A stretch of 56,898 nt of DNA, taken from positions 1-56,898 of the forward strand of contig CAMNRN010000001.1 in the NCBI GenBank assembly GCA_946553095.1, written 5' to 3'. Below, one piece after another: positions 13,963 through 49,526 of the stretch. A program made the position numbers and the translations under genes. Below the pieces are notes generated by a model. It was not told the DNA's origin. It saw only the letters and a list, made by a program, of their open reading frames with translations, and did not search any database. The stretch comes from an uncultured Mycoplasmatota bacterium (GTDB lineage: Bacteria; Bacillota_I; Bacilli_A; RF39; UBA660). How positions within the stretch are numbered: position 1 is the stretch's first letter; each line of letters begins with the position of its first letter.

Positions 13963-14085
13963 TTACTTACTTAAGACCTTACGACCTTTTCTACGACGTT
14001 TGTTTAAAATATCTGTTTCCTTTCGAGCAAAAAATCCGAATTTTTTAGCTCTTTTTCTTTTATTTGGTTGATATGTTCTTTTCAT
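13963..14085 (-). CDS. rpmH: 50S ribosomal protein L34 (40-aa form)
   Basis: Hand-translated as [40 protein letters not shown]. Below the ORF-track size cutoff. Canonical rpmH-rnpA arrangement next to oriC. Confidence 0.85.
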
Positions 14086-14115
14086 AACGCATACTCCCTT
14101 TCCTCAAGTAGCATT

Positions 14116-14145
14116 ATTATAATATTAAAAAAAAGAAATTGTCAA
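14116..14145 (-). promoter_or_regulatory. Sigma-A-type promoter for rpmH-rnpA operon
   Basis: On the minus strand, TTGACA (14140-14145), an 18-nt spacer, then TATAAT (14116-14121). Confidence 0.5.
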
Positions 14146-14191
14146 GGAAAATTCATAATATAAATCAATAAAAATGTTAATAACTGTTGAA

Positions 14192-14437
14192 CTATCCACA
14201 AAATATTTTTAATCCCAACTAAAATCAACAACTTATCCACCATAAAAAATATCCAAAATAGCACTTGTCCACCAAAAACAAATTACAAACTGTCCCATAA
14301 AACCAGGCTAAAATCACTATTGATGGGGATTGTGGATAATTTGTGGATAACTTTCAACACAATTAACAAAAGCTTAATAACACGATGTGGATAATTTTAA
14401 TGATTTTGTGTATAGTTCACAATCTTTTTGTGGATAG
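14192..14437. promoter_or_regulatory. oriC upstream DnaA-box cluster
   Basis: Perfect TGTGGATAA boxes at 14331, 14342 and 14386. Near-consensus boxes at 14192 (CTATCCACA), 14233 (TTATCCACC), 14265 (TTGTCCACC) and 14429 (TGTGGATAG). Gene-strand polarity switches here. Confidence 0.85.
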
Positions 14438-14580
14438 TGTTGAAAACATTTGTTTCCACTGAATACACCGACTAAATTCAGTTGATAAAATTGTTATTAT
14501 CACGTTTTTAACATTTTTTTCTTTCATTTTCCCCATTTTTATATTACAATTTAATTGGACAGTGTTAGTGGGGTGAGGTT

Positions 14581-15930
14581 TTGAAGACGGAAGTACTTTG
14601 GAGCAGCTTTTTAACAGAAATTTCTAATCAAGTAAATCAAAATACTTATGCCATTTGGTTTTCAAAATTAGAACTGCTATCAGTTAATAACAATGATATA
14701 ACAATAAAAGTTCCCATGGAAATTCACAAGCAAATGCTTGGTGAAACATATCAGGAACTAATAGATTCAACTTTTTTTTCGTTAACCGGAAAAAATTATA
14801 ACCTTATATATAAAACAGAAGATGAAATAGAGACATTTTCACCTCCAATTATGGAGACTAAACCTAATAAAGAAACTGAATATGAAACAGGATTAAATCC
14901 CAAATTCACCTTTGATAGCTTTGTTGTTGGAAATTCCAATCGATTAGCTTTTGTAGCAGCTCGAGCCGTTGCCGAAGCACCAGGAACAATTCACAATCCA
15001 TTATTTATATATGGCCGAAGCGGCCTTGGAAAAACTCATTTAATGCAAGCTATAGGAAACTATATAAAAACCCACAGCGATAAAAAGGTTATTTATACTA
15101 CAAGTAATGAATTTATGACTGACTTCACGGGCATTGCGACGATTGACAAAGGAAGCAATAATATAAACTATGCCAACGAATTTAAAAATAAATATCGAAA
15201 TGTTGACGTTTTAATAATTGATGACATTCAATTCTTAGTAGGAGCTGAAAGAACTCAACAAGAATTTTTCCACACATTCAACACACTTCACCAAGAAAAC
15301 AAACAGATCATTATCAGCAGTGACAAATCCCCAGACGACTTAAAAAAAATAGAAGAACGATTACGTAGTCGCTTTATGTGGGGACTTCCAGTTGATATTT
15401 ATCCACCAGATTTTAATCTACGATGTGACATAATCAACGCTAAAATTAAAAATACCAGCATAGAAAACAAACTAAGTGAAGACGTCATAGAATATATTGC
15501 CAACTCATGTGTTAATGATGTTCGTCACATTGAAGGAACAATTAACAGATTATTAGCATATACCGCTATGATGGTTCCCGACATGATAAATCTTGATTTT
15601 GCAATTGAAGCATTAAAAGATTATGTTAATACCAACATATTTATCAACAATTCGATTGCATCTATCCAAAATGCTGTGGCTGATTACTTTAAAATATCGA
15701 TCGACGATTTAAAAAGCAAAAGAAGAACCAACAATGTTGTAAGACCTCGACATATTGCAATGTATTTATGTCGAATGGAAACAGATGAAAACCTCGCCAA
15801 AATTGGTCTAGAATTCGGTGGACGCGACCATTCAACTGTATCAACAGCTATTGATAAAATAACAAGTGAACTCGAAACAGATGATAACTTGAATAAGATG
15901 TTGAAAGAAATAAAAAATAAGTTACAATAA
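14581..15930 (+). CDS. dnaA: Chromosomal replication initiator protein
   Basis: 449 aa. TTG start after GGGGTGAGG. Walker A GRSGLGKTHL and the C-terminal DnaA-box-binding domain (RPRHIAMYLCR, GGRDHSTV). Confidence 0.97.
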   Translation: MKTEVLWSSFLTEISNQVNQNTYAIWFSKLELLSVNNNDITIKVPMEIHKQMLGETYQELIDSTFFSLTGKNYNLIYKTEDEIETFSPPIMETKPNKETEYETGLNPKFTFDSFVVGNSNRLAFVAARAVAEAPGTIHNPLFIYGRSGLGKTHLMQAIGNYIKTHSDKKVIYTTSNEFMTDFTGIATIDKGSNNINYANEFKNKYRNVDVLIIDDIQFLVGAERTQQEFFHTFNTLHQENKQIIISSDKSPDDLKKIEERLRSRFMWGLPVDIYPPDFNLRCDIINAKIKNTSIENKLSEDVIEYIANSCVNDVRHIEGTINRLLAYTAMMVPDMINLDFAIEALKDYVNTNIFINNSIASIQNAVADYFKISIDDLKSKRRTNNVVRPRHIAMYLCRMETDENLAKIGLEFGGRDHSTVSTAIDKITSELETDDNLNKMLKEIKNKLQ

Positions 15931-16050
15931 TGTGGATAAATAAAAAAAAGAAATCACGGTTTTTCGGATGAATAGTTAATAATTATAAAGTTATTAACAC
16001 AACTAACGCTATTAATAAAATAAATAATATTATATATATAAAGAAAGAAG
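15931..16050. promoter_or_regulatory. oriC downstream part: DnaA box plus AT-rich candidate unwinding element
   Basis: A perfect TGTGGATAA lies at 15931-15939, directly after the dnaA stop. It is followed by an extremely AT-rich stretch (..ATTAATAAAATAAATAATATTATATATATAAAG..) before dnaN. Confidence 0.55.
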
Positions 16051-16059
16051 GAATAATTT

Positions 16060-17178
16060 ATGAAATGGACTATTGAAAAAAATATAATACTTGAAGCTTT
16101 AAACAATGTAACTAAAGCTTTATCCCAAAGAACAACTATCCCAGTTTTAAACGGAATTGTTTTTGACATAACTGAAAATGGAATCGATTTGTTAGCAAGT
16201 GATTCAGAACTAACAATAAAAGTATCTATTGCCGAAAAAGATATAAAGAATATCGAAGGAAAGGGTAGAATTATCATTCAAAGTAAGTATTTTGTCGAAA
16301 TGATTCGGAAAATGCCATCTGATATAATTGATTTTGAGATAGAAGATAATTTAAAAATAAAAATATCAACACCTAACAATCAATATCGCTTAAATTGTTA
16401 TAACCCTAATGATTATCCAAACATCAATCTTGAAAAAAGTGAAGATGCTATAACTATCAAATCTCCAATTTTAAAAGAAATAATCAACCAAACATCATAT
16501 GCTTTATCTACACAAGAAGTACGACCTTTATTAACAGGAATAAATTTAAAAATAAACGGTGATATTTTAGAATGTATAGCAACAGATTCTTATCGTTTAT
16601 CAAAGAAAAACATAAAACTAAATACTCCAGTGAACAAACTAATAAATATCGTAATTCCTGGACGAAGTATTACTGAACTAGAAAAAATCGTTGCTGAAGA
16701 TGATGATGTTGAAATCCACGTATTTAGTAACAAAATATTATTTATATATAAAAATATCTACATTCAAAGTAATCTATTAAGTGGAACTTACCCGGAAACA
16801 TCCCATTTCATCCCAAGTGATTTTGCTTATATGATAAACTTAAATTTAAAAGAATTTTTCGATGCGGTTGATAGAGCTGCCTTACTTGCTCAAAATAAGG
16901 AAAAAAACATCATTAAAATGCATATTGAAGATAAAGAAATGGTTATAACATCGACATCTAATGAACTAGGAAATGCTGAAGAAAAACTTAAAATTGATAG
17001 TAATAACAAAGAAAAAATTGAAATTTCCTTTAGTTCAAAGTATATGATGGATGCTTTAAAAGTAATCAAAGAAGAAAATATTCTATTACTACTTAATACC
17101 GATGATAAACCGATCCTTGTAAAACCAGTGACAGATGAAACTTTAATTGAATTAATTCTCCCAATTAAAACCTACTAA
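16060..17178 (+). CDS. dnaN: DNA polymerase III beta sliding clamp
   Basis: 372 aa, three-domain clamp. Conserved position after dnaA. Confidence 0.95.
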   Translation: MKWTIEKNIILEALNNVTKALSQRTTIPVLNGIVFDITENGIDLLASDSELTIKVSIAEKDIKNIEGKGRIIIQSKYFVEMIRKMPSDIIDFEIEDNLKIKISTPNNQYRLNCYNPNDYPNINLEKSEDAITIKSPILKEIINQTSYALSTQEVRPLLTGINLKINGDILECIATDSYRLSKKNIKLNTPVNKLINIVIPGRSITELEKIVAEDDDVEIHVFSNKILFIYKNIYIQSNLLSGTYPETSHFIPSDFAYMINLNLKEFFDAVDRAALLAQNKEKNIIKMHIEDKEMVITSTSNELGNAEEKLKIDSNNKEKIEISFSSKYMMDALKVIKEENILLLLNTDDKPILVKPVTDETLIELILPIKTY

Positions 17179-38501: not shown

Positions 38502-38532
38502 TTGACACTACCCCTAGGTTATAGTCTATATT
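38502..38532 (+). promoter_or_regulatory. MerR-type promoter with 19-nt spacer
   Basis: TTGACA (38502-38507), a 19-nt spacer containing ACTA..CCTAGG..TAGT, then TATATT (38527-32). The over-long spacer is typical of MerR-controlled promoters. Confidence 0.4.
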
Positions 38533-38554
38533 GTTTTTTGAGAGGAGGAAAAGT

Positions 38555-39199
38555 ATGTTTATAAATGAAGTAGTTCATATTGTAGGACTATCTCGAAAAA
38601 GCATTCGTTATTATGAAGAAAATGGGTTATTGACTCCTACACGCAACAAGGATAATAAGTATCGCATCTATAACGAAGAAGATATCAAAAAATTAAAAAT
38701 AATTAAATTTTTAAGGGAACTCGATGTCCCAATAAACGATTTAAAAAGACTAAATACAAAGGAAATAACTTTGAAAGAGTGCTTAAATGAAAAAATAAGA
38801 CAAATAGAAAATGAAGAAAAAAGATATGCTAAAGTCAAACATATGTGTAATGAAATTAATAAAACAAACGAAACCATCGAAACATTAAATATTACTAATT
38901 ATTTTTGTGAAATGAATAAACTTAATAAGGAGGGATTTACAATGAGAAATACTAAGACCAAAAAAAGCAAGAAGATAATAGGTGCCTGTCTTTCCAGTTT
39001 CATATTTGGTACCATATTTATCTTTTTAATAGCCATAATTAGCTATTTTCAATTTAGCGAGGAACATAATATTCCTTGGTTAGTATATTGGTTCATTATG
39101 CTTATACTTGGCATTCCGCTTTTAGGAATAATATACAATTTAGTAGCAAGAATAAAAGAGATTTTAGGAGGAGAAGAAGATGAAGCTAGTAAATATTGA
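38555..39199 (+). CDS. MerR-family regulator with C-terminal double TM anchor
   Basis: MerR HTH INEVVHIVGLSRKSIRYYEENGLL, a coiled-coil region, then two hydrophobic helices. ATG at 38555 follows AGGAGG. Confidence 0.7.
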   Translation: MFINEVVHIVGLSRKSIRYYEENGLLTPTRNKDNKYRIYNEEDIKKLKIIKFLRELDVPINDLKRLNTKEITLKECLNEKIRQIENEEKRYAKVKHMCNEINKTNETIETLNITNYFCEMNKLNKEGFTMRNTKTKKSKKIIGACLSSFIFGTIFIFLIAIISYFQFSEEHNIPWLVYWFIMLILGIPLLGIIYNLVARIKEILGGEEDEASKY

Positions 39200-39503
39200 T
39201 TATGTCCCAGGTTATACCATTACAGAAGCCTTAGGTGTAGTAAAAGGACAAATTGTTCAATCAAAAAACATAGGTAAGGATTTTATGGCTGGAATGAAAA
39301 CTATTGTCGGAGGAGAGATATCTGGATACACTGAAATGATATCGACCGCGAGAAGTATGGCTACCAAAAGAATGGTGGATGATGCCGAAGCTTTAGGTGC
39401 TGATGCCATTATAAATATTCGCTATGGATCATCAACAGTAATGAGTGGAGCCGCTGAAATCATTGCCTATGGAACAGCCGTAAAAATAAGAAAAAGTGAA
39501 TAA
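39180..39503 (+). CDS. ybjQ: YbjQ/UPF0145 family protein
   Basis: 107 aa. GVVKGQIVQSKNIGKDFMAG..GGEISGYT..AR..A..RM...A..LGADAIINIRY is typical of the family. Overlaps the MerR gene by 20 nt. Confidence 0.8.
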   Translation: MKLVNIDYVPGYTITEALGVVKGQIVQSKNIGKDFMAGMKTIVGGEISGYTEMISTARSMATKRMVDDAEALGADAIINIRYGSSTVMSGAAEIIAYGTAVKIRKSE

Positions 39504-39580: not shown

Positions 39581-40165
39581 ATGGAAAACTTATTTACTAC
39601 CAACGAAAATGGTGTAAGTTTAGCAATTAATAATTTAGAAACAAATTGTATAACAAACCCCAATAATAAATTTGGAATTGATAGTGAAGGAAACATTCAT
39701 GCTAATAGTATAAGCCTAGTAAATAATGATATTACTATAGGCTCTTCAAACTATTTAGAAAGTGAAGAAATAGAGCCAGGCCTAGTAAAATTAAAAGACA
39801 ATCAAGCTTTATATGGCACAATAATTGAGCAAAGGTCTAACTCAAATGGCACATACATTAAGTTCTCTGATGGAACAATGATATGTTACAGTACAAAAAG
39901 CTATCGAGCAACGGTAACCCAGAAATTAAATGATTACATTTATTATGGTTATGTAACATTAGAGGATTTCCCTCATGAGTTTGCGAGTATTCCATCCGTG
40001 ACATACAGTCATAATACCAGTACAGAGATATTTGCAATTCAACCATATAACATAGAATCAATAACCACCACAAACCCCGGCGGTGTATATCCAATAGGAC
40101 CAGGGATAAGAAATGAACCAACAGATTTATATATAACAGTTACAGCTATAGGTAAATGGAAATAA
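39581..40165 (+). CDS. Stand-alone phage tail-fibre-like protein (gp53-like C-terminal type)
   Basis: ATG after AAGGAGG. The C-terminal half SNGTYIKFSDGTMICYS...FPHEFASIPSVT...TAIGKWK resembles the receptor-binding tips of phage tail fibres. Assigned from memory of that family. Confidence 0.4.
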   Translation: MENLFTTNENGVSLAINNLETNCITNPNNKFGIDSEGNIHANSISLVNNDITIGSSNYLESEEIEPGLVKLKDNQALYGTIIEQRSNSNGTYIKFSDGTMICYSTKSYRATVTQKLNDYIYYGYVTLEDFPHEFASIPSVTYSHNTSTEIFAIQPYNIESITTTNPGGVYPIGPGIRNEPTDLYITVTAIGKWK

Positions 40166-40167
40166 CC

Positions 40168-40204
40168 AAAAAGCATCAAAATGATAAAATTTGATGCTTT
40201 TTTA
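40168..40204 (+). terminator. Rho-independent terminator after the tail-fibre-like ORF
   Basis: AAAGCATCAAA-N9-TTTGATGCTTT hairpin followed by a T-run. It covers the ORF-track start at 40181. Confidence 0.65.
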
Positions 40205-40261
40205 GATGTTTGTAATTACTGTGAATTATTAAATCGAATAACTTATTTAAGGGGTGATAAA

Positions 40262-40369
40262 ATGCCAAGTTACATCAATATGAAAAATGAAATAGCAATA
40301 TTACAAGAACGACAAAAGCAAATAATTGAAGAACTAAATTATATTGAAATATATTACCAACAAAAATAG
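40262..40369 (+). CDS. 5' part of a split small coiled-coil/HTH gene (phage late-regulator-like)
   Basis: ATG at 40262 after AAGGGGTGA. It stops at 40367-40369, just after an A5 run. The reading frame continues in the -1 frame to 40575 with an HTH-like segment. Confidence 0.35.
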   Translation: MPSYINMKNEIAILQERQKQIIEELNYIEIYYQQK

Positions 40370-40596
40370 AAAGTTTAAAAATAATTGACACAAATTTAAA
40401 AGAACTCCAAGGAATAGAAAATAAATTATACTATAATATAATAGTAACAGGTCTTTCTCCAACAAAAGCAGTTCAAAAAGTATCATTCGATTTTGATAAA
40501 GATGAATCGACAATTTGGAAAAATTACTATCCAAAAGTTAAAGAAAAAATAAATGCTCTAGCGAACATAAAGTAACTTCTTCATATCATACAACGG

Positions 40597-43500
40597 GTGA
40601 AAAAAATGAAAGAATTAACAGAAAAAAGAAAATTGCGCGAAAAGCCTTTTCTAAAGCCAAACGGCGAAATGATTGCTTATGTTTATGACGAAGACGTCCA
40701 TTACTTACAAGATGGCAAGTACTTAGAAATAAACAATACGTTAATCAAAAATAAGGATAGTTTTGAAAACAAACAAAATTCCTTCAAAAGTATTTTTAAT
40801 AAAAAAAATTTATTAGAAATGCGAAAAGGGGATAACTACTTAGTTATCAACTTAAAAAATAGTATGGAACTTTTACCATTTAAAAAAAATAAAGAAGAGA
40901 TTACTTATCGAAATATCTTAAATGATATAGATATTGACTATCAAGTAAAAAATACCAAAGTAAAAGAAGCAATAATTCTACATAGTCAAGAAAATATTCC
41001 TAAATCCCTAGAATTTGAAGTCTCAACAAATCTTGATTTAAATATGAAAGATAACAAAATTATTGCTTCCAAAAACAATGTTGAAATATTTATGATTGAA
41101 GAACCATTCATGTTCGATAGTATTGGTTCTTATAATTATAATATATCCTACCAATTAGACAAGTTGTCAAATAATTATCTAATTACTTTAAAATTAGATA
41201 CAAAATGGTTACATGATAAAAGAAGAGTTTTCCCAATATCTATTGACCCAACCATTACAAATAGTGCAAGCCAAAACAATGTCTATGATACATATATTTG
41301 TAATACTTCTCCAAAAACAAACTATGGTGGAGAAAATATCCTCAAAGTCGGCGTCGATCGCGATGGAAACATCTATCGAAGTCTTTTGAAATTTGACTTA
41401 CCAACCATTGGAACAGGAAGTCAGGTAATTAATGCTTATATTTCTTTGTTTCCTAATTTGCAAATAGCAGACCTTCTTTATCGTGAATATTCCTATATTG
41501 ATGTTCATGAAATGAAAGAAGATTGGCAAGAAAGAAGTGCGACATGGGAAACTACTAATGATAAATATAATCCTCGTTTAGAATACTATAGCGATTATCA
41601 TCTAAATTATCATGATCCAGTCATTCACGACGTTCCATTTGATGTTACAAACTTAGTAAAGAAATGGTACTCTGGAACTCCAAACTATGGTGTGATGTTA
41701 AAATCTCACATAGAAACCAAAGAAAAAAATTATGATGTATGTAAGTATGTTTCTAAAAATAACAATATATCATCAGATCCAAAACCGATATTAGTGATAA
41801 CTTATCGTAATCAAAATGGTTTAGAAGATTATCTAGCCTATAAAACACAAAATTACACCTATGGTACATCTCACATTAACACTTACAATGGTAATTTAAC
41901 AACTGCCTTTGATATTATCTCAACTTTAGGTGGAAAATCTCCGGCTAATGTATTGTTGTATTACAACACTAATGATGTCATTTTAGAAAACAACTATGGA
42001 TATGGTCTAGGATATAAATTAAATTATCATCAAACCCTAAAACCAGTAATAATTGAATCTATTAACTATATTGAATATGTTGATGCAGATGGAACAATTC
42101 ATTATTTTGTTGAAGAAAAATATGGTCATTATAAAGATGAAGATAATTTAAATTTAACAGTTACTCCATACGGCCCAGATGCTAAAGTAATGATTGACAA
42201 GTCCGGTAATAAATCATTCTTTACTCAAAAAGGAGATACCTATTATTTAACACAAATCATATCAACCGAGGGCGATAAAACCCTTATTGATTATGATTCT
42301 GATTTAAAAATAACCAAAATAACTGATCCGGTAAAAAACATTATTAATATTTCATATTCCTCCAACAAAATAACTTTTAAAACCAAAGAAAAAGAAGTTA
42401 CTTTAAACACCAATAATGAATCTCAAGTAGAAGTTCTTAATATTGATCATAAAATAACTAAATTTTTCTATAACTCCCTTCATCTTCTTAATAAAATAAC
42501 TGATACTAAAGAAATATCTCTAACATTCGATTATTACAATTCTATTCCTTATCGAATGAAAAAAATAACTGAATTAGGTCTAAACAACACTTTAGGTAAG
42601 ACATTAGATATAACTTATGATTTTAATGTTACAACTTTTACTGACAATTTAGGTCATAAAAACACTTATGTATTTAATAATGTTGGTAATGCCATAACAG
42701 TAACCAATTTAGATAATACTGATTCATTATCAAATGCTTATGGGAAAAGCTATAATTATTTTGAAACAGCTGCTGATAAAAATCGTTTGCAATCTAGCGA
42801 ACAATTAAATAAGACAATAAAAAATTATCTTTCAAATTCTAGTTTTGAATTAGATAATGAAATATTTACTATTACAGGTGGAACCAAAACCTTTAGCGAA
42901 GACTACTCCTTAAGTGGCAAAAGGTCGTTAAAAGTAACAGGAAATAATCCTTTATTAGAATATACAATTAATATTCCTCAAAATGCCTTTTACACCTTTA
43001 GTATTTATGCCAAAGGAACTGGTAAACTAAAATTAAAAATTGATAATACTACCTCGGAAACATTTAACTTAACCGACAATTTTGAAAGATATCAAATTAG
43101 TCAATATATAAATACACCAAGTTTAAAAATTTCCATTGAACTTGATAGCACAACTACCTACATTGATGATATTCAATTAGAACAAAATGAAGTAGCTAAT
43201 TATTATACAATGATTGAAAATTCTGACTTCAGTAGTAGTCTCTCAAACTGGAATTTAACTGCATATCAAAGTGATGATGGAGGAATACATCTAAATCCAA
43301 ATTATGAGATAATATCTATTGATAATAACTTAAATGCTTTAAAAATTAACCGTGATCCATACATAGCTCATAATTTAGATCAAACATTTAATACATCTGG
43401 AAAAGCAGGCGATAAATATGTTGTCTCATTTTGGTACAAAAACTCTGGTTTAAATAATTCCTATTCAGCAGAATTTCCAGCCAATTGTAAGATTTCTTTT

Positions 43501-46500
43501 AATACCAACGAGGACATTCCAACCGATGATTTCCCTCAAATATGGTTAAATTATAATGAAGAAGAATGGCAATACTATTCTGAAACATTCGTGGCTGAAT
43601 ATGACTACGACAGTCTAGAATTTAATCTATTTTTAGAAGATTCAGCTAATGAATTTTACATTACTAACATTACTCTTTATAAAGATATATCAAGAACAGA
43701 TTACTTTTATGACGATGAAGGAAATATTATTGAAATAAATGATACAGAAGATAATTCATCAACATTTAATTACAATGATAACAACGAATTAATCAAAATG
43801 ATGGACCCTCGTGGAAATAACTTTATATTTGAGTATGATAATAATTTAACCTCTAGAGTTTTAAGTGGTATCTCCAAATCAGGTATATCAAACGAAATAA
43901 GATACGACAATTTTGGTAACCCAATCATTACCAAAACAAAGGTTGTTGGCAAAAATGAAAAAATACCATCAGGTAAATACTTTATTAGAAGCAAAGGAAC
44001 AGACAAATACTTTGAAGCCAACTTTGAAACCAAAAACATCGAACTAAAAGAAAACAACTGTAGTCACGATATTTGGATACTTACTAACACCAAAGACGAT
44101 TTATATACAATTTCTCCGGCATCTCTCCCATCATTTTATATTAATCAAAGTCGAAACGGAGACATAAAACTAGAAAAAACACCTTCATTATTTACTTTAA
44201 ATCCGCAAGAAAACGGTAGTTATTACATTACTATTTTTAGAAGAACCAGAGATGATATTGCATCTGATCTCGGTGCCAACGAAAACGGCATAATTGAAAT
44301 AATTGATGAAGGACCAATTTATCCATATATGTTTGAATTTTACTTAGAAAGTGCCGATTATCCATACTTTATTGAAAACACGGCAGAATATACCGAAGAT
44401 GGTAAGTTTATTAAAAGCACCACGGATACTTTACTAAACAAAACAATTTATGATATTAATGAGACGAATGGCTTAATTAACTCAGAAACAGATCCAAATG
44501 GTGATACTACCTATTACACATATAATGAGAAAAAACAAATAACTAGCATTTCTAAAAATGATAAAACCATAACTTATAGCTATAATGATCAAGATAACTT
44601 AAGTAAAATTATCTCAGGAGCCAAAGAATATAATTTTGAATATGATGAATTTCTAAAGCCTAAATCAGTTAAAATAGGTAATGATATTACTCTAATAACC
44701 AATGAATATGAGTCCCAAAACGGCAACTTAAAAAAATCCACTTATGGAAATGACCACATAACAACTTACACATACGATGAATTAGATCGTCCAAAATCCA
44801 TCACAAAATCTAACCAAAAATTCATCTATAGATATGATAATTTTAATAATATTGCTAAAATAGATTGTTATAACCGTGATGAAGAATTAATTAAATCTCA
44901 TGCTTATGACTATGACAAGAGTAGTAGACTAATAAACTATCAAAGTGGTGATTTTGATATTAAATATAACTATGACCAAAACTCTAATGTCACAGCCAAA
45001 AATTATCGAAAAAATTCCCTCCAAAAAACTAAATCAATTTCTTATAATCTAGACAATGCTGTTACTACATCTGTTTTAGATAATAGTACCATTAACTATA
45101 GTTATGACCCATTAGGAAGATTAACAAACAGCACTTTAAACGATACTTTTAAAACAGACTACACCTACGTTTCAAAAGGTTATAGAACATCACTTTTAAT
45201 TGATTCACTTTCTTCTGGTTCAAACAAATACTCCTACAAATATGACAACCTAAATAACATAACTCATATTTATTACAACGATACTTTAACAAATGAATAC
45301 TTCTACGATAACTTAAATGAACTTATCAAAGAAAATGATTATAAAAATAGTAAAACTATTTCCTATACCTATGATACAGAAGGAAATATTTTAAATAAAA
45401 AGATCCATCCATTAAATAAAGAAATAGTTTTAGACGAAACAACTTATAGTTATGATAACTCTAAATGGGAAGACCAATTAACTAACTTTAATGGCACTTA
45501 CATTACTTATGATGAAATAGGAAACCCTAAAACAATTGGTAATGATATAACTTTAAATTGGCAAAATGGCCGTGAACTATCAAGTTACAAAGATACATCA
45601 AAAAACCTAAATGTTACTTATGAATATAACAAAGATGGAATAAGAACAAGCAAGATAGTAAATGGTGTAAAACATGAGTATAGTCTTGAAAATAGTAACA
45701 TAATATTTGAAACAATAGATAGTAATGTGATATACTATTTACGAGATGCTAACAGTGGATTAATCGGACTAGATTTAAATGGCACTAGATACTACTATCT
45801 AAAAAATGCTCAAGAAGACATAACAGGCATTATGGATAGCAATTATAATGTCATAGCAACATATGAATATGACTCATGGGGTAATATCCTAAGCATCAAA
45901 GATAGAAGTGGAAACTCCATCACCGATGAAACAAACATTGCAATCATAAACCCATATAGATATCGAAGTTACTACTACGATGAAGAAACAAAACTATACT
46001 ACCTAAACTCAAGATATTACAATCCTAAATGGGGTAGATTTATTAATGCAGATGGTATAATAAATGCTGATGAAAACATAAATGGATACAATTTATATAC
46101 ATATACGTGTAATAATCCAGTTAACAATTATGATGAGGAAGGAACTTTTCTTGGCAAAATCATAAATAAAGTAAAAAATATATTTAATAAATCCAACACA
46201 AGTAAAGAAAAAAATTGGGTAAAAAGCGAAAATAAAAACAAATTACCTACAAAATCAAAGCCTAATTCTGTAAAAGAAAATCCAAATGGAGATAAAAGGT
46301 TTTATGGCGATGATGGAAAAGCAAAACACGATTTGGATAAAAGCCACCCCACTCATCATCCAAATTTACCAAATCCTCATGCTCATGAATGGACGTGGGA
46401 TGGAGATAACCCAAGCAGAGGACCAGCAATTGATCCAAAAGATTTACCAGAATCTATAGTAATAGTAGGAACTAATATAACAAGTTCATATATACTATAC

Positions 46501-46575
46501 AGAGTAATGAGGCTTCTACCATCTTTAATACCTGAATTTTGGTGGACTATACCTTCAAATTTAGCAACTCCATAA
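40597..46575 (+). CDS. Giant RHS/YD-repeat polymorphic toxin
   Basis: 1992 aa. DNRLRE-type domain (YRSLLKFDLP...HEMKEDWQERSATWET). Many YD repeats (YTYDELDRP, YSYDPLGRL, YEYNKDGIRT). RHS core PYRYRSYYYDEETKLYYLNSRYYNPKWGRFINADG...NNPVNNYDEEG, then a 143-aa variable tail. No hydrophobic signal peptide or LXG/WXG N-terminus. The start is GTG at 40597 or ATG at 40606. Confidence 0.9.
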   Translation: MKKMKELTEKRKLREKPFLKPNGEMIAYVYDEDVHYLQDGKYLEINNTLIKNKDSFENKQNSFKSIFNKKNLLEMRKGDNYLVINLKNSMELLPFKKNKEEITYRNILNDIDIDYQVKNTKVKEAIILHSQENIPKSLEFEVSTNLDLNMKDNKIIASKNNVEIFMIEEPFMFDSIGSYNYNISYQLDKLSNNYLITLKLDTKWLHDKRRVFPISIDPTITNSASQNNVYDTYICNTSPKTNYGGENILKVGVDRDGNIYRSLLKFDLPTIGTGSQVINAYISLFPNLQIADLLYREYSYIDVHEMKEDWQERSATWETTNDKYNPRLEYYSDYHLNYHDPVIHDVPFDVTNLVKKWYSGTPNYGVMLKSHIETKEKNYDVCKYVSKNNNISSDPKPILVITYRNQNGLEDYLAYKTQNYTYGTSHINTYNGNLTTAFDIISTLGGKSPANVLLYYNTNDVILENNYGYGLGYKLNYHQTLKPVIIESINYIEYVDADGTIHYFVEEKYGHYKDEDNLNLTVTPYGPDAKVMIDKSGNKSFFTQKGDTYYLTQIISTEGDKTLIDYDSDLKITKITDPVKNIINISYSSNKITFKTKEKEVTLNTNNESQVEVLNIDHKITKFFYNSLHLLNKITDTKEISLTFDYYNSIPYRMKKITELGLNNTLGKTLDITYDFNVTTFTDNLGHKNTYVFNNVGNAITVTNLDNTDSLSNAYGKSYNYFETAADKNRLQSSEQLNKTIKNYLSNSSFELDNEIFTITGGTKTFSEDYSLSGKRSLKVTGNNPLLEYTINIPQNAFYTFSIYAKGTGKLKLKIDNTTSETFNLTDNFERYQISQYINTPSLKISIELDSTTTYIDDIQLEQNEVANYYTMIENSDFSSSLSNWNLTAYQSDDGGIHLNPNYEIISIDNNLNALKINRDPYIAHNLDQTFNTSGKAGDKYVVSFWYKNSGLNNSYSAEFPANCKISFNTNEDIPTDDFPQIWLNYNEEEWQYYSETFVAEYDYDSLEFNLFLEDSANEFYITNITLYKDISRTDYFYDDEGNIIEINDTEDNSSTFNYNDNNELIKMMDPRGNNFIFEYDNNLTSRVLSGISKSGISNEIRYDNFGNPIITKTKVVGKNEKIPSGKYFIRSKGTDKYFEANFETKNIELKENNCSHDIWILTNTKDDLYTISPASLPSFYINQSRNGDIKLEKTPSLFTLNPQENGSYYITIFRRTRDDIASDLGANENGIIEIIDEGPIYPYMFEFYLESADYPYFIENTAEYTEDGKFIKSTTDTLLNKTIYDINETNGLINSETDPNGDTTYYTYNEKKQITSISKNDKTITYSYNDQDNLSKIISGAKEYNFEYDEFLKPKSVKIGNDITLITNEYESQNGNLKKSTYGNDHITTYTYDELDRPKSITKSNQKFIYRYDNFNNIAKIDCYNRDEELIKSHAYDYDKSSRLINYQSGDFDIKYNYDQNSNVTAKNYRKNSLQKTKSISYNLDNAVTTSVLDNSTINYSYDPLGRLTNSTLNDTFKTDYTYVSKGYRTSLLIDSLSSGSNKYSYKYDNLNNITHIYYNDTLTNEYFYDNLNELIKENDYKNSKTISYTYDTEGNILNKKIHPLNKEIVLDETTYSYDNSKWEDQLTNFNGTYITYDEIGNPKTIGNDITLNWQNGRELSSYKDTSKNLNVTYEYNKDGIRTSKIVNGVKHEYSLENSNIIFETIDSNVIYYLRDANSGLIGLDLNGTRYYYLKNAQEDITGIMDSNYNVIATYEYDSWGNILSIKDRSGNSITDETNIAIINPYRYRSYYYDEETKLYYLNSRYYNPKWGRFINADGIINADENINGYNLYTYTCNNPVNNYDEEGTFLGKIINKVKNIFNKSNTSKEKNWVKSENKNKLPTKSKPNSVKENPNGDKRFYGDDGKAKHDLDKSHPTHHPNLPNPHAHEWTWDGDNPSRGPAIDPKDLPESIVIVGTNITSSYILYRVMRLLPSLIPEFWWTIPSNLATP

Positions 46576-46596
46576 ATAATAAGGAGGAATTAAAAA

Positions 46597-47037
46597 ATGT
46601 ATGGAATAAGATTTGAAATAAATAATGCTTATGATAATTTTTTGGAAAAAATATTAAATAAAATAAATATTTTGGAATATAATTGGCAAATTCTTCATGA
46701 CGATGTTTTTGATGAAAATAATCAATATAAATTCAATAAAGAATATTACAAAGGAAATGAATTCTCGGAATTAATCAAAGGGAATAAATACTATATTATT
46801 TCATTAAAATTAGCAGCGTATAAAAAAACGTGTTATAAAGAGATAAATAATTATGAAGGGTTTGAAAAAAGTGAAGCACGGCTGTTTATAAAAATAATTG
46901 ACAACATTTTTGTTGATGTTTATGCCAAAGAAAAAAGCCTATTAGATATAATAATAAATAATTTAAAAAGTAATATGATATCAAATATTGAATATATAAG
47001 TCAGTCAAATTTACAAAAATATTTTGATAATGATTAA
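46597..47037 (+). CDS. Candidate cognate immunity protein
   Basis: 146 aa, cytoplasmic-looking. AGGAGG RBS, 21 nt after the RHS stop on the same strand. This is the classic toxin-immunity position. No family recognised. Confidence 0.5.
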   Translation: MYGIRFEINNAYDNFLEKILNKINILEYNWQILHDDVFDENNQYKFNKEYYKGNEFSELIKGNKYYIISLKLAAYKKTCYKEINNYEGFEKSEARLFIKIIDNIFVDVYAKEKSLLDIIINNLKSNMISNIEYISQSNLQKYFDND

Positions 47038-47090
47038 AGAAAAATTATAAGGGGAAAAAAATCTCCTTTTCTTTGAAAGGGGGGATTTAA

Positions 47091-47345
47091 ATGAATATAA
47101 CAATACCATTAATAGTTCCAACAGTTGCATATACATCTGGAGCCATAACAAAGATCTTTATTAAAAAACTACCAAATAGATATATACCAATCCAAAATGT
47201 AATAATCGGAATAATAAGTGCAATTATCTGTGTATCTTCAAACTTAGAGAATAACTTTCTAAATGCATTAGTATTATGTATCATATCAACGATGGGAGCA
47301 GGAGGATTATCAGATCTTGCAAGCAAAAACAAAAAGACAACATGA
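47091..47345 (+). CDS. Phage holin (Hol118/A118-like, three TM)
   Basis: 84 aa, three hydrophobic helices and a charged tail. LPNRYIPIQNVIIGIISAI and STMGAGGLSDLASKNKK parallel Hol118 (VPSKWLPTVSILIGAILGA and AGALAGAGGTGLFE). RBS AGGGGGGA. Confidence 0.6.
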   Translation: MNITIPLIVPTVAYTSGAITKIFIKKLPNRYIPIQNVIIGIISAIICVSSNLENNFLNALVLCIISTMGAGGLSDLASKNKKTT

Positions 47346-47528
47346 AAAATGAAACACCTAAATGCTTCATAATTCATAAACCTCAATAAAACCATCAAGA
47401 TGAAAACTAGATAAGTGGAATATACTTTTATTCCACCTATCTAAATATATAATAGTAAATAATAAAATATAACCCAAAATATGCTTTATTATTTTATAAC
47501 AAAAAAATTCCCAATTATAGCATAATTC

Positions 47529-47936
47529 ATGATCATGTTATTAAAATTTAAAAGAATAATGTCATTGTTAGCAGAAATATTAATAATATTTGTCTCATGT
47601 TTTTTAAATATATATTTATTCGAGGTAATAAATGAAAGCATAGCGTTAATAATATTTATCATATTAATGCCACTCTTGTTTATATTTAAAGACTGTATTA
47701 TAGGATATGAAAGCTTTGGCAAAAAAAGTGCAAAAAGAATCAACAGAATCAATAAAACTATTTGGAAAATCAATGTCTATGCAACTGACGATTATGATTT
47801 TAAAAATGAACACAACAGCAGATGGCTAGTTGACTATTTAAATGATTTTGGAAATACTATGCAAGAATGGGGAGTAATGGAAAAATACGTATGGGAAATA
47901 AATTATGATACATACTATTTTGATAAAAATGATTAA
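47529..47936 (+). CDS. Hypothetical membrane protein (RDD-like fragment plus soluble C-terminus)
   Basis: Two TM helices and a KDCIIGYESFGKK motif reminiscent of the RDD family. No clear RBS. A competing antisense ORF exists. Confidence 0.25.
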   Translation: MIMLLKFKRIMSLLAEILIIFVSCFLNIYLFEVINESIALIIFIILMPLLFIFKDCIIGYESFGKKSAKRINRINKTIWKINVYATDDYDFKNEHNSRWLVDYLNDFGNTMQEWGVMEKYVWEINYDTYYFDKND

Positions 47937-48052
47937 TGTATAAAATAAAAAAACAAATCCAATATTTAATAAAAGGAGTTCACATGATAATTCCAAAGAA
48001 GTAATAAAAAAAATAATATTAAAAAAAATAAAAAATCATAGTTTAGGAGTGA

Positions 48053-48217
48053 ATGACAATGATTATAATTACATTAATATCAATAATAATTTTATTAATA
48101 AGTATATATTATGGTATAGTTTTTAGAAACAATTTTATAAATTGGATAATAATTATATTTCTAACATCACTAAATATCCATAATTTAAAAGATAAATCAG
48201 TCCAATACAAAAAATAA
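48053..48217 (+). CDS. Small two-TM hypothetical protein (54 aa)
   Basis: Hand-found ORF MTMIIITLISIIILLISIYYGIVFRNNFINWIIIIFLTSLNIHNLKDKSVQYKK after AGGAG. Below the ORF-track cutoff. Confidence 0.3.
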   Translation: MTMIIITLISIIILLISIYYGIVFRNNFINWIIIIFLTSLNIHNLKDKSVQYKK

Positions 48218-48285
48218 ATATATGTAGTAATTTAATATCTTTATTAATTATATTCTATATTATTACAATTAATATCTTTACTATT

Positions 48286-48591
48286 ATGCAAAGTAATACA
48301 TTTTTTAAAACCAAAACAGTTGAAGAATTTAAAATAAATAACAAAGAAAACATATTAGTTCAACAAATTATAAATGGCGGTTTATTAACAAATAATTATG
48401 AAATAGCTTATATAAGAAAATTACCTTTTGGTTTATACTGTTATAGTATATTGGATGCATATAACATCCAAGATGATTATCTAACATTAAGCGAAACCAT
48501 GAAAGTCATAAAAGATATAGATAAAGGTTTTTGTTATCATAAAATAAAGTTAAATAATATGCCAAAAACTACTAGTAAAAGAAAATATTAA
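48286..48591 (+). CDS. Hypothetical protein
   Basis: 101-aa ORF with no RBS and no recognisable domain. Possibly an orphan immunity-type gene. Confidence 0.25.
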   Translation: MQSNTFFKTKTVEEFKINNKENILVQQIINGGLLTNNYEIAYIRKLPFGLYCYSILDAYNIQDDYLTLSETMKVIKDIDKGFCYHKIKLNNMPKTTSKRKY

Positions 48592-48665
48592 CAATTAAAG
48601 TAATAATTTTCTAGGAGTAACAAGAATGAAAAAAAGTTAGATATAAACAAAAGGGGGTACAAAAT

Positions 48666-49394
48666 ATGTATGATTATAAAAGTCCTGATGATTTAGTAAA
48701 ATGGGCTACAAACGAATATAAAAAGAAAAATAAATATAAAAATGGGGGCATTGGTAGATATACCAAAGATAAAACAAGATTGTTTGATTGCTGTGGTTTA
48801 TACAAGTGTTTTCTATGGCACGATTATCATACCCAAAATGCTAAGTATTATGGTATAACTCAAAAAGATTTAAACTGCGAAGGTCTACTAAAAGAAGCTG
48901 TAGAAAAAGGCCCAATATCAACCATTCCAGAAATACCTGGTGTATTAGTTTATCAAAAAGGACACATGGGAATTTATCTTGGAGATGGACAAGTAATAGA
49001 AGCTACAGCCAAAAAATACGATGGTCAAAATGGAAAAATATATAAGACATACTTTAAGGGTAAATGTCCAGATTGTGATGGAAAAAGAACAACATGGACT
49101 AAATGGTTTAAAGGTCTAAATTTAAACTACCAATCTTCATTAGAACCATCATTTTTAGGAAAAAAGGGTTATTACTCATATGGTGATAATCATAAGAATA
49201 TTGGAAAAATTGCCAAATTTATGTACAAAGTCTTTCCCGCATACACAAATAAACTTGCATTAGGAAACTACCTAGGAAAAAACCTTGAAAAAGCTCTTAA
49301 AGAATTCCAAAAAAGAACGAAAATAGTAGTAAATGGTCGAATTGATAAAAATACCTTGTCAAAATTAAAAGAATATGGTTTCAAAGAATCATAA
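48666..49394 (+). CDS. NlpC/P60-type endolysin with C-terminal peptidoglycan-binding domain
   Basis: Catalytic Cys context FDCCGLYKCF and His context GHMGIYLGDGQVIEAT. C-terminal PG_binding_1-like repeat (LGKNLEKALKEFQKRTKIVVNGRIDKNTLSKL). No signal peptide. RBS AAGGGGG. Confidence 0.75.
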   Translation: MYDYKSPDDLVKWATNEYKKKNKYKNGGIGRYTKDKTRLFDCCGLYKCFLWHDYHTQNAKYYGITQKDLNCEGLLKEAVEKGPISTIPEIPGVLVYQKGHMGIYLGDGQVIEATAKKYDGQNGKIYKTYFKGKCPDCDGKRTTWTKWFKGLNLNYQSSLEPSFLGKKGYYSYGDNHKNIGKIAKFMYKVFPAYTNKLALGNYLGKNLEKALKEFQKRTKIVVNGRIDKNTLSKLKEYGFKES

Positions 49395-49466
49395 TTACAT
49401 TTATCTTTTAAAAATACCCAATTAAAGAATTTTTGTTAAAACAACAATCTTTTAACATTCTTTCAT

Positions 49467-49497
49467 AGATTAGACAAACTGTTCTAATCTTTTTTTT
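49467..49497 (+). terminator. Rho-independent terminator after the endolysin gene (right edge of island)
   Basis: AGATTAGA-N8-TCTAATCT hairpin followed by T7. Confidence 0.7.
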
Positions 49498-49526
49498 GCG
49501 TCATATACTTAGTTAGGTGAATACTC

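Follow-up and report, generated by a model that had tools for sequence, protein, structure and literature searches.

The type 10 secretion system (T10SS) that releases the YenTc toxin of Yersinia entomophaga handles a large RHS-cocoon cargo with no usable export signal. The cargo is linked to a phage-derived holin and endolysin and to dedicated regulators, and release is expected from a sacrificed subpopulation of cells (PMC10847048, PMC10847046). Here we describe a locus with these features in a stretch of 56,898 nucleotides from an uncultured Mycoplasmatota bacterium (contig CAMNRN010000001.1; the whole stretch is referred to as the window). An array of genes on the plus strand of the window, at 39581-49498, encodes a tail-fibre-tip-like protein (TF), a large RHS polymorphic toxin without a signal peptide, a candidate immunity protein, a holin and an endolysin. 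An initial annotation of the window proposed that the RHS toxin is released by the domesticated holin/endolysin pair. Our comparative analysis of related loci points in the same direction: the array is probably a phage-derived unit, complete in itself, for the production and release of a bacteriocin-like RHS toxin. Judged from genes alone, the window has the genetic marks of type 10 secretion, namely a signal-less cargo linked to a holin and a signal-less peptidoglycan hydrolase. It also differs from YenTc in several respects. The host is Gram-positive, hence there is no spanin. Searches of the RHS protein and of the proteins encoded around it turned up neither a TcA translocator nor an SpvB/β-propeller TcB. 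As cargo there is a polymorphic toxin directed at bacteria and equipped with an immunity gene, and its partner is a tail-fibre-tip protein.

The closest Firmicute systems are PaLoc (TcdR-TcdE-TcdL with TcdA/TcdB) and Bcn5 (UviA-UviB-amidase). As in this type of locus, a signal-less toxin or bacteriocin is linked to a holin, to an endolysin or its remnant, and to a sigma-type activator (PMC9527704, PMC12485765). Unlike these systems, the window has an RHS polymorphic toxin as the cargo, with a TF partner and orphan cassette arrays, and its holin belongs to another family (a weak match to Hol44), neither Phage_holin_4_1 nor BhlA. The candidate counterparts of the sigma factor TcdR or UviA are only sigma-region-4-like: a frameshifted gene, c4, in the window and a Sigma70_r4_2 protein, c2, in its relatives (c-numbers are labels of protein clusters, and L-numbers such as L001 are labels of homologous loci or contigs). 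A review of clostridial holin-mediated export gives the large clostridial toxins and Bcn5 as the only cargo (PMC9527704). Our literature searches on Gram-positive RHS toxins found no paper that links them to holin/endolysin genes or to a tail-fibre partner, in line with the initial annotation, in which such an arrangement was not known to have been described for Firmicute RHS toxins.

The DNRLRE-RHS proteins that have been published from Gram-positive bacteria, namely the WapA proteins of B. subtilis and S. suis, are Sec substrates (PMC12704120). They share with the window protein the DNRLRE domain, the RHS shell, a polymorphic C-terminus, an adjacent immunity gene and a homologous N-terminal region. 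However, WapA has a Sec signal peptide and wall-anchoring domains, whereas in the clade of the window protein the signal has been lost and TF and lysis genes are present instead. How RHS toxins of such size get out of Gram-positive cells is an unsettled question even for WapA, which depends on Sec (PMC12704120), and the comparative pattern reported here offers a concrete, testable exit route for the whole signal-less clade. Colicins, S-pyocins and tailocins also resemble the system in the window, in that a cytoplasmic bacteriocin is paired with an immunity protein, release occurs through linked lysis functions, and receptor-binding modules are exchanged with phage tail fibres. In the window, however, the toxin has the form of an RHS cocoon, neither a tail tube nor a sheath is present, and a holin-endolysin pair is found instead of the colicin lysis lipoprotein. 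The MuF toxins of temperate Firmicute phages (PMC5576092) are likewise signal-less Firmicute polymorphic toxins tied to phage biology. They are encoded in the head-morphogenesis module and have been proposed to be packaged in the head, whereas the window toxin is encoded beside tail-fibre-tip and lysis genes and its loci lie mostly outside prophages.

The RHS toxin and its missing export signal

All genes listed in the initial annotation were recovered at their positions on the plus strand. The RHS gene (40597-46575) encodes 1992 amino acids from a GTG codon. Its start is probably the ATG at 40606 (1989 amino acids), as called in contigs from several sequencing runs that are 99.98% identical to the window. 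An exact-sequence lookup of the window protein found no record. The protein begins with MKKMKELTEKRKLREKPFLKPNG. Domain searches identified a DNRLRE/CBM96 domain at residues 226-402, RHS repeats (Pfam RHS_repeat, E 1.7e-24, and NCBIfam RHS_core), an Rhs_assc_core (TIGR03696) at residues 1758-1849, and a Tox-WTIP C-terminus at residues 1932-1992. The AF2 model (pLDDT 82.7) arranges an all-beta N-domain, the CBM96 domain and an RHS shell in this order, and Foldseek matches it to solved Rhs shells. Tox-WTIP has been described as a two-helix pore-forming toxin (Zhang et al., PMC3482391).

By hydropathy, the first 60 residues of the RHS protein contain no hydrophobic segment, and an in-frame stop just upstream of the start makes a longer N-terminus with a hidden leader impossible. 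Pfam gave no match to an LXG/WXG domain in the protein, and the modelled N-domain is all-beta, not helical. Foldseek of this domain returned a weak OspA-like sheet along with the expected CBM96 domains and RHS shells, and no secretion-related fold. Hydropathy, Pfam, the AF2 model and the upstream stop therefore agree with the initial annotation that the protein lacks a Sec signal and a type VII secretion (T7SS)-type domain. About 45 of the closest homologues (40-48% identity) begin directly with the motif MKEIEL..KR..REKHFL..DG, and distant homologues (25-35% identity) have a classical signal peptide and a linker ahead of the same motif. Since the motif follows a signal peptide and linker in the signal-bearing relatives, the RHS N-terminus is the first strand of a folded domain and not a new targeting signal. 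Comparison of these sequences indicates that the signal-less state is a trait of the clade.

The gene for the candidate immunity protein (46597-47037, 146 amino acids) begins 21 nt past the RHS stop and matches DUF2691 (Pfam E 1.4e-23). The spacing and the match bear out the coupled 146-residue immunity candidate of the initial annotation. A DUF2691 homologue is also found directly after each of the five other full-length WTIP-type C-termini (L012, L052, L056, L062 and L066), and the DUF2691 protein is a candidate for the cognate immunity protein of Tox-WTIP. The same-species contig L097 is 99.5% identical to the window up to window position 46060, where it continues into another toxin and a 105-residue immunity gene. 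Behind the new cassette comes a displaced piece of the window-type C-terminus (L097:16481-17847, corresponding to 45223-46575 in the window). The difference between L097 and the window is classic toxin swapping within one species, and the locus is therefore evolutionarily active. With an RHS shell, a core with a variable toxin, and a downstream immunity gene all present, the window locus belongs to the RHS/YD polymorphic toxins.

These features also bear on where the toxin acts. It could act inside its producer, for instance in abortive infection or programmed death together with the holin and lysin, and not be exported at all. The cytoplasmic location of the RHS protein and its proximity to lysis genes and phage-type switches (IrrE/XRE) would fit such a role. 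However, the immunity gene, the polymorphism of the C-terminal toxin and the orphan cassettes are hallmarks of interbacterial polymorphic toxins (PMC3482391), and the binding modules in CBM96 and TF make sense only outside the cell. We consider action inside the producer very improbable.

Lysis genes beside signal-less RHS proteins

In the window, the RHS gene sits between the TF gene and the holin-endolysin pair. The holin gene (47091-47345) begins 53 nt past the immunity gene and is preceded by a strong GGGGGG ribosome-binding site. Its 84-residue product matches PHROG holin families (E 3.7e-6 and 7.7e-5) and has a charged C-terminus and three hydrophobic segments by eye (two by a simple hydropathy count). 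The assignment as a holin, its 53-nt position and, by eye, its three segments stand as first annotated, but the label ‘Hol118-like’ could not be verified, as Pfam returned only the weak Hol44 match. Members of its cluster (c24) lie directly upstream of three types of lysin in L022, L045 and L068: SH3-bearing, Amidase_2 and GH25. The endolysin gene (48666-49394) encodes 242 residues without a signal peptide. It is NlpC/P60-like with a PG_binding_1 domain, as found with Pfam, and it matches a PHROG endolysin. Its homologue in L002, the closest relative and syntenic with the window, is 64% identical. An AU-rich hairpin followed by U8 (49467-49498, plus strand, -7 kcal/mol, z -3.0) forms an intrinsic terminator that closes the array. 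The signal-less NlpC/P60 lysin with a terminator behind it, as first annotated, was confirmed, with an NlpC/P60 match that is sub-threshold and a terminator that is moderate, not strong.

The clade to which the RHS protein belongs is large. Scanning species-representative genomes gave at least 472 related stretches, and the best 80 loci together with the window (81 loci) were analysed with our own open reading frame (ORF) calling and protein clustering. Lysin-like genes were counted when they lay on the same strand, at most three genes upstream or eight genes downstream of the RHS gene, in loci with at least 4 kb on both sides. By this measure, 26 of the 48 well-flanked close-clade loci have a lysin-like gene near the RHS gene, usually after a small membrane protein. 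Two gene orders recur in the close clade, RHS-immunity-(c6)-holin-lysin and (XhlA-like)-holin-lysin-TF-RHS. The same position is filled by five holin clusters, including the Phage_holin_4_1 cluster c10, and by at least four lysin types (GH25, Amidase_2, M23-like and NlpC/P60-like). Such non-orthologous replacement of holins and lysins at one position argues for selection on their function. One apparent lysin, in L134 of the MRDRIL clade, turned out to be a LysM-only protein and was discarded as a false positive.

A second set of loci allowed signal-less and signal-bearing RHS proteins to be compared. A metagenome scan with a signal-bearing query found at least 498 related stretches, in which both types are mixed, and the scan seeded with signal-bearing sequences provided a control set of 80 further loci, again a mixture of signal-bearing and distant signal-less ones. 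Proteins were classed by leader length and hydropathy, and a holin or lysin, flagged by homology, was looked for within 10 same-strand genes. Among clusters at 60% identity, a holin or lysin accompanies 32 of 53 signal-less clusters and 1 of 13 signal-bearing ones (Fisher p = 0.0012). Among the deep-clade clusters at 40% identity, the counts are 4/5 and 1/9 (p = 0.023). This is the kind of neighbourhood statistics that the initial annotation had suggested, and lysis genes are indeed enriched beside signal-less RHS genes. When 144 proteins encoded in the neighbourhood of signal-bearing genes were scanned with Pfam, no lysis family occurred in more than one of them; the families seen there were those of conjugation, ABC transporters and two-component systems. 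Three signal-bearing homologues that were looked up directly had no TF, holin or lysin, and they were surrounded by conjugation and unrelated genes.

The linkage extends to distant signal-less lineages, whose contigs have ~41-47% GC and come in many cases from the human gut. Their operons are compact: a divergent IrrE/M78 and XRE pair is followed by RHS-Phage_holin_4_1-Amidase_2, the last with SH3 or PG_binding_1 in addition. Phage_holin_4_1 occurs in the relatives L157, L175, L118 and L140. The use of this family by distant relatives of the window locus is a further similarity to PaLoc, as Phage_holin_4_1 is the Pfam family that contains TcdE. In a rough neighbour-joining tree, which has no support values, the signal-less groups occupy at least two separate positions among the signal-bearing ones. 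The precomputed Pfam annotation of another locus, L185, reads sigma70_r4, Gp10_C, c4, RHS, immunity gene, a 99-residue protein, a 79-residue protein and Peptidase_M23. It was also observed on L185 (1-20387) that this complete module, from sigma protein and TF through c4, RHS and immunity gene to holin and M23 lysin, sits at the end of a conjugative element whose genes include TraG, TrbL, PrgI, a VirB4-like ATPase and CHAP.

As only the signal-less RHS toxins keep lysis genes adjacent, release by cell lysis is the likely route for them. Several observations weigh against this reading. Signal peptides were judged by leader length and hydropathy, not by SignalP. Lysins and holins of the control loci were detected partly by their homology to the case set, a weakness that the Pfam scan of the 144 neighbours mitigates. 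About 40% of the signal-less clusters have no lysis gene in the fetched flanks, which contig ends and long arrays of orphan cassettes explain in some cases. The sister contig L186 lacks the lysis genes of L185 and has a GH3 gene in their place. In a few loci, the lysis genes adjoin true prophage tail genes, so that part of the linkage could arise because RHS and lysis genes both favour phage-derived islands. In the window itself, the Hol44 match of the holin (E 0.0035) and the NlpC/P60 match of the endolysin (20.8 bits, cut-off 23) fall below the Pfam cut-offs, with PG_binding_1 passing at 27 bits. The two genes are 1.3 kb apart, with a strong hairpin and three orphan ORFs between them. Finally, the window carries the regulator c4 in frameshifted form, so that the module may be silent or poorly inducible there, should c4 act as an activator.

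Some of these points could also be taken to mean that the linkage is coincidental. The island would then be a decayed prophage or accessory island with phage relics, beside which an RHS cassette has inserted; the toxin would exit by an unrecognised route or not at all. Consistent with such decay, all the accessory genes are phage-derived, the TF-RHS pair directly follows a prophage tail and lysis module in L027, L028, L033 and L035, and the window has both the frameshifted regulator and the orphan ORFs between holin and lysin. Coincidence, however, would not be expected to favour signal-less proteins specifically, nor to recur in distant lineages with other holin and lysin families. TF is an intact ORF in 78/81 loci. 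The module has housekeeping genes on its flanks in the window and in most other loci, and toxin swapping within the species indicates that it is still under selection. No capsid, portal, terminase or integrase was found among the family assignments in and beside the array, and the window-wide ORF list contains no obvious candidate for one. A search for flanking att-like direct repeats gave only chance-level AT-rich matches. Phage tail genes were found upstream in only 4/81 loci, ten other large upstream proteins had no structural PHROG match, and IMG/VR holds only three close relatives. With housekeeping flanks and none of these phage genes found, the initial annotation was right that the lysis genes are not part of a functional prophage in the window. 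Coincidental linkage appears unlikely. Release of the RHS toxin by a domesticated holin and endolysin is instead supported by the lack of a signal, the lack of a prophage and a linkage specific to signal-less proteins.

The tail-fibre-tip partner and the proposed release mechanism

The TF gene (39581-40165) encodes 194 amino acids without a signal peptide. It matches the PHROG 2712 tail fibre family (E 3e-18), aligning to positions 583-699 of the 700-position profile. In 78 of the 81 loci, the gene immediately preceding RHS is a TF homologue, the strongest linkage of all, and in both the close-clade and the control loci TF occurs with signal-less proteins only. The initial annotation is incomplete in this respect, as it omits this near-universal partner as well as the broken state of the upstream regulator. 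TF proteins consist of a conserved N-terminal module of ~55 residues and a variable, swappable tip of the phage receptor-binding type, usually Gp10_C. In three loci (L027, L028 and L033), the tip is 58-68% identical to the tail-fibre tip of a co-resident prophage. Long variants (350-480 residues; L001, L013, L037, L047 and others) have an extra conserved N-domain of ~170 residues, for which no Pfam, PHROG or PDB sequence match was found and which could be an attachment domain. A word-indexed search for TF homologues returned only three matches, and the relatives were found by local clustering. TF is a likely targeting partner of the RHS toxin.

A tail-fibre tip next to the toxin raises the question of whether RHS and TF are parts or cargo of a phage or tailocin particle encoded elsewhere, such that the toxin is delivered on a virion-like structure. 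Besides the TF tip itself and the N-domain of the long TFs, which could serve attachment to a particle, the N-domain of the RHS protein (residues 1-225) aligns with the N-terminus of a PHROG family, 37549, that carries the label ‘virion structural protein’ (E 9.5e-10). This label is automatic, however, and signal-bearing relatives have the same RHS N-domain. Genes for a sheath, tube or baseplate, as expected for a tailocin, were not found in the window, where the tail-fibre-tip gene is the only one of its kind, and most other loci also lack these genes as well as capsid and terminase genes. We think a particle improbable. A search of a phage database with the RHS N-terminus gave only four weak matches. 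The best match in an annotated phage, and the only annotated record among the four (H3, labelled Streptococcus phage), is a large unannotated ORF beside tetO and transporter genes and not a tail gene; with no tail genes beside it, this record is uninformative on a virion role.

For a module that makes and releases the toxin by itself, the following mechanism can be proposed. The genes of the array would be co-transcribed. RHS and TF, both without a signal peptide, would fold in the cytoplasm and may form a complex there, and the DUF2691 protein would shield the producer against the pore-forming Tox-WTIP C-terminus. The linked holin would give the signal-less endolysin access to the wall. A fraction of the cells would then lyse or become locally permeable and let the toxin out, so that release would depend on holin and lysin in either a lytic or a non-lytic mode. 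Outside, TF and the CBM96 domain of the RHS protein may bind the surface of a competitor cell. In the relatives, phage-type regulators would drive expression: sigma-region-4-like proteins (c2 and c4) in some, an IrrE/ImmA protease together with an XRE repressor in others.

More tentatively, these loci may represent a class that has not been described, ‘fibre-guided RHS bacteriocins’, widespread in vertebrate-gut Firmicutes. Its members would be cytoplasmic RHS-TF assemblies in which TF sets the target range, released by a holin and endolysin under phage-type switches, and the class would have arisen or been kept in several lineages. If so, they would be a Gram-positive counterpart of the release of Tc toxins by T10SS. 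Holin/endolysin-assisted release, known from clostridial exotoxins and from the Tc toxins of Gram-negative bacteria, would then also serve antibacterial polymorphic toxins in gut commensals. TF also points to a modular target specificity, a property that could be put to use in engineered narrow-spectrum antibacterials.

Regulators, small ORFs and the setting of the island

Between TF and RHS in the window lies c4 (40262-40575, plus strand), a frameshifted small gene of ~104 codons with a long helix and a sigma-70-region-4-like helix-turn-helix (HTH), which can be read only in two reading frames. The ‘small HTH-like gene’ first annotated at 40262-40369 is HTH-like, as weak structural matches indicate, but it is the front part of this longer gene, here a pseudogene. 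An AF2 model of c4 (pLDDT 86) has a long helix and a three-helix bundle, and its best Foldseek matches are sigma region 4 domains, all of them weak (E about 0.2-0.3, TM 0.63-0.65). The gene is intact in the same-species contigs L097, L101 and L103, and the frameshift of the window is also found in L098-L100 and L104. Both alleles circulate in the population. Overall, c4 lies between TF and RHS in 19/81 loci, and the sigma-70-region-4 protein c2 (Sigma70_r4_2) precedes TF in 25/81. Other close-clade loci have an IrrE/M78 peptidase fused to an HTH. In L157 (8874-9739), on human-gut contigs, a divergent pair of an IrrE/M78 peptidase and an XRE repressor was observed directly upstream of a signal-less RHS-holin-amidase operon. 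This pair is an ImmR/ImmA-like switch that may respond to DNA damage. A scan for consensus promoters in the window was uninformative (77 sites, against 81 in shuffles).

The three small ORFs noted earlier between holin and lysin were confirmed on the plus strand at 47529-47936 (135 residues, two transmembrane segments), 48053-48217 (54 residues) and 48286-48591 (101 residues). Weak similarity links the 135-residue ORF to toxin/immunity arrays in L003, L017 and L021, and L002 holds an array of small membrane proteins at the position of the three ORFs. They are probably orphan immunity genes or cassette remnants that separate holin from lysin. Just after the holin stop lies a 38-nt hairpin (47407-47444, -16.6 kcal/mol, z -5.8). 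It has a U-tract on the minus strand only, with no convincing minus-strand gene downstream, and it could be a terminator or a recombination scar. Between the immunity gene and the holin, no hairpin better than shuffles was found (z -0.3). In L098 (7918-8199), the public call of the holin runs through the TGA stop (93 instead of 84 residues), which suggests that the caller used a different genetic code. The housekeeping ORFs of the window are full-length with TGA as a stop.

The array proper (~10 kb) is part of an island of ~11 kb between ksgA and yabG in a low-GC Firmicute chromosome (~29% GC). Every island gene is on the plus strand, starting with a MerR-family regulator and YbjQ and continuing with the toxin and lysis genes. 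The left flank consists of tatD, a 3D-domain gene and ksgA, followed by MerR/YbjQ, and the right flank of yabG, veg, spoVG, yabP and divIC. Among genomes, the closest are assemblies of uncultured ‘Bacilli’ from the gut of mouse, rabbit, chicken, ruminants and humans. The MerR-family regulator has two C-terminal transmembrane segments and overlaps the YbjQ gene (38531-39503), and the pair accompanies the island elsewhere only in the syntenic locus L002. The GC skew of the window changes sign at ~14000-17000, and the adjoining ORFs have, by size alone, the lengths expected for an origin region (dnaA, dnaN, recF, gyrB and gyrA).

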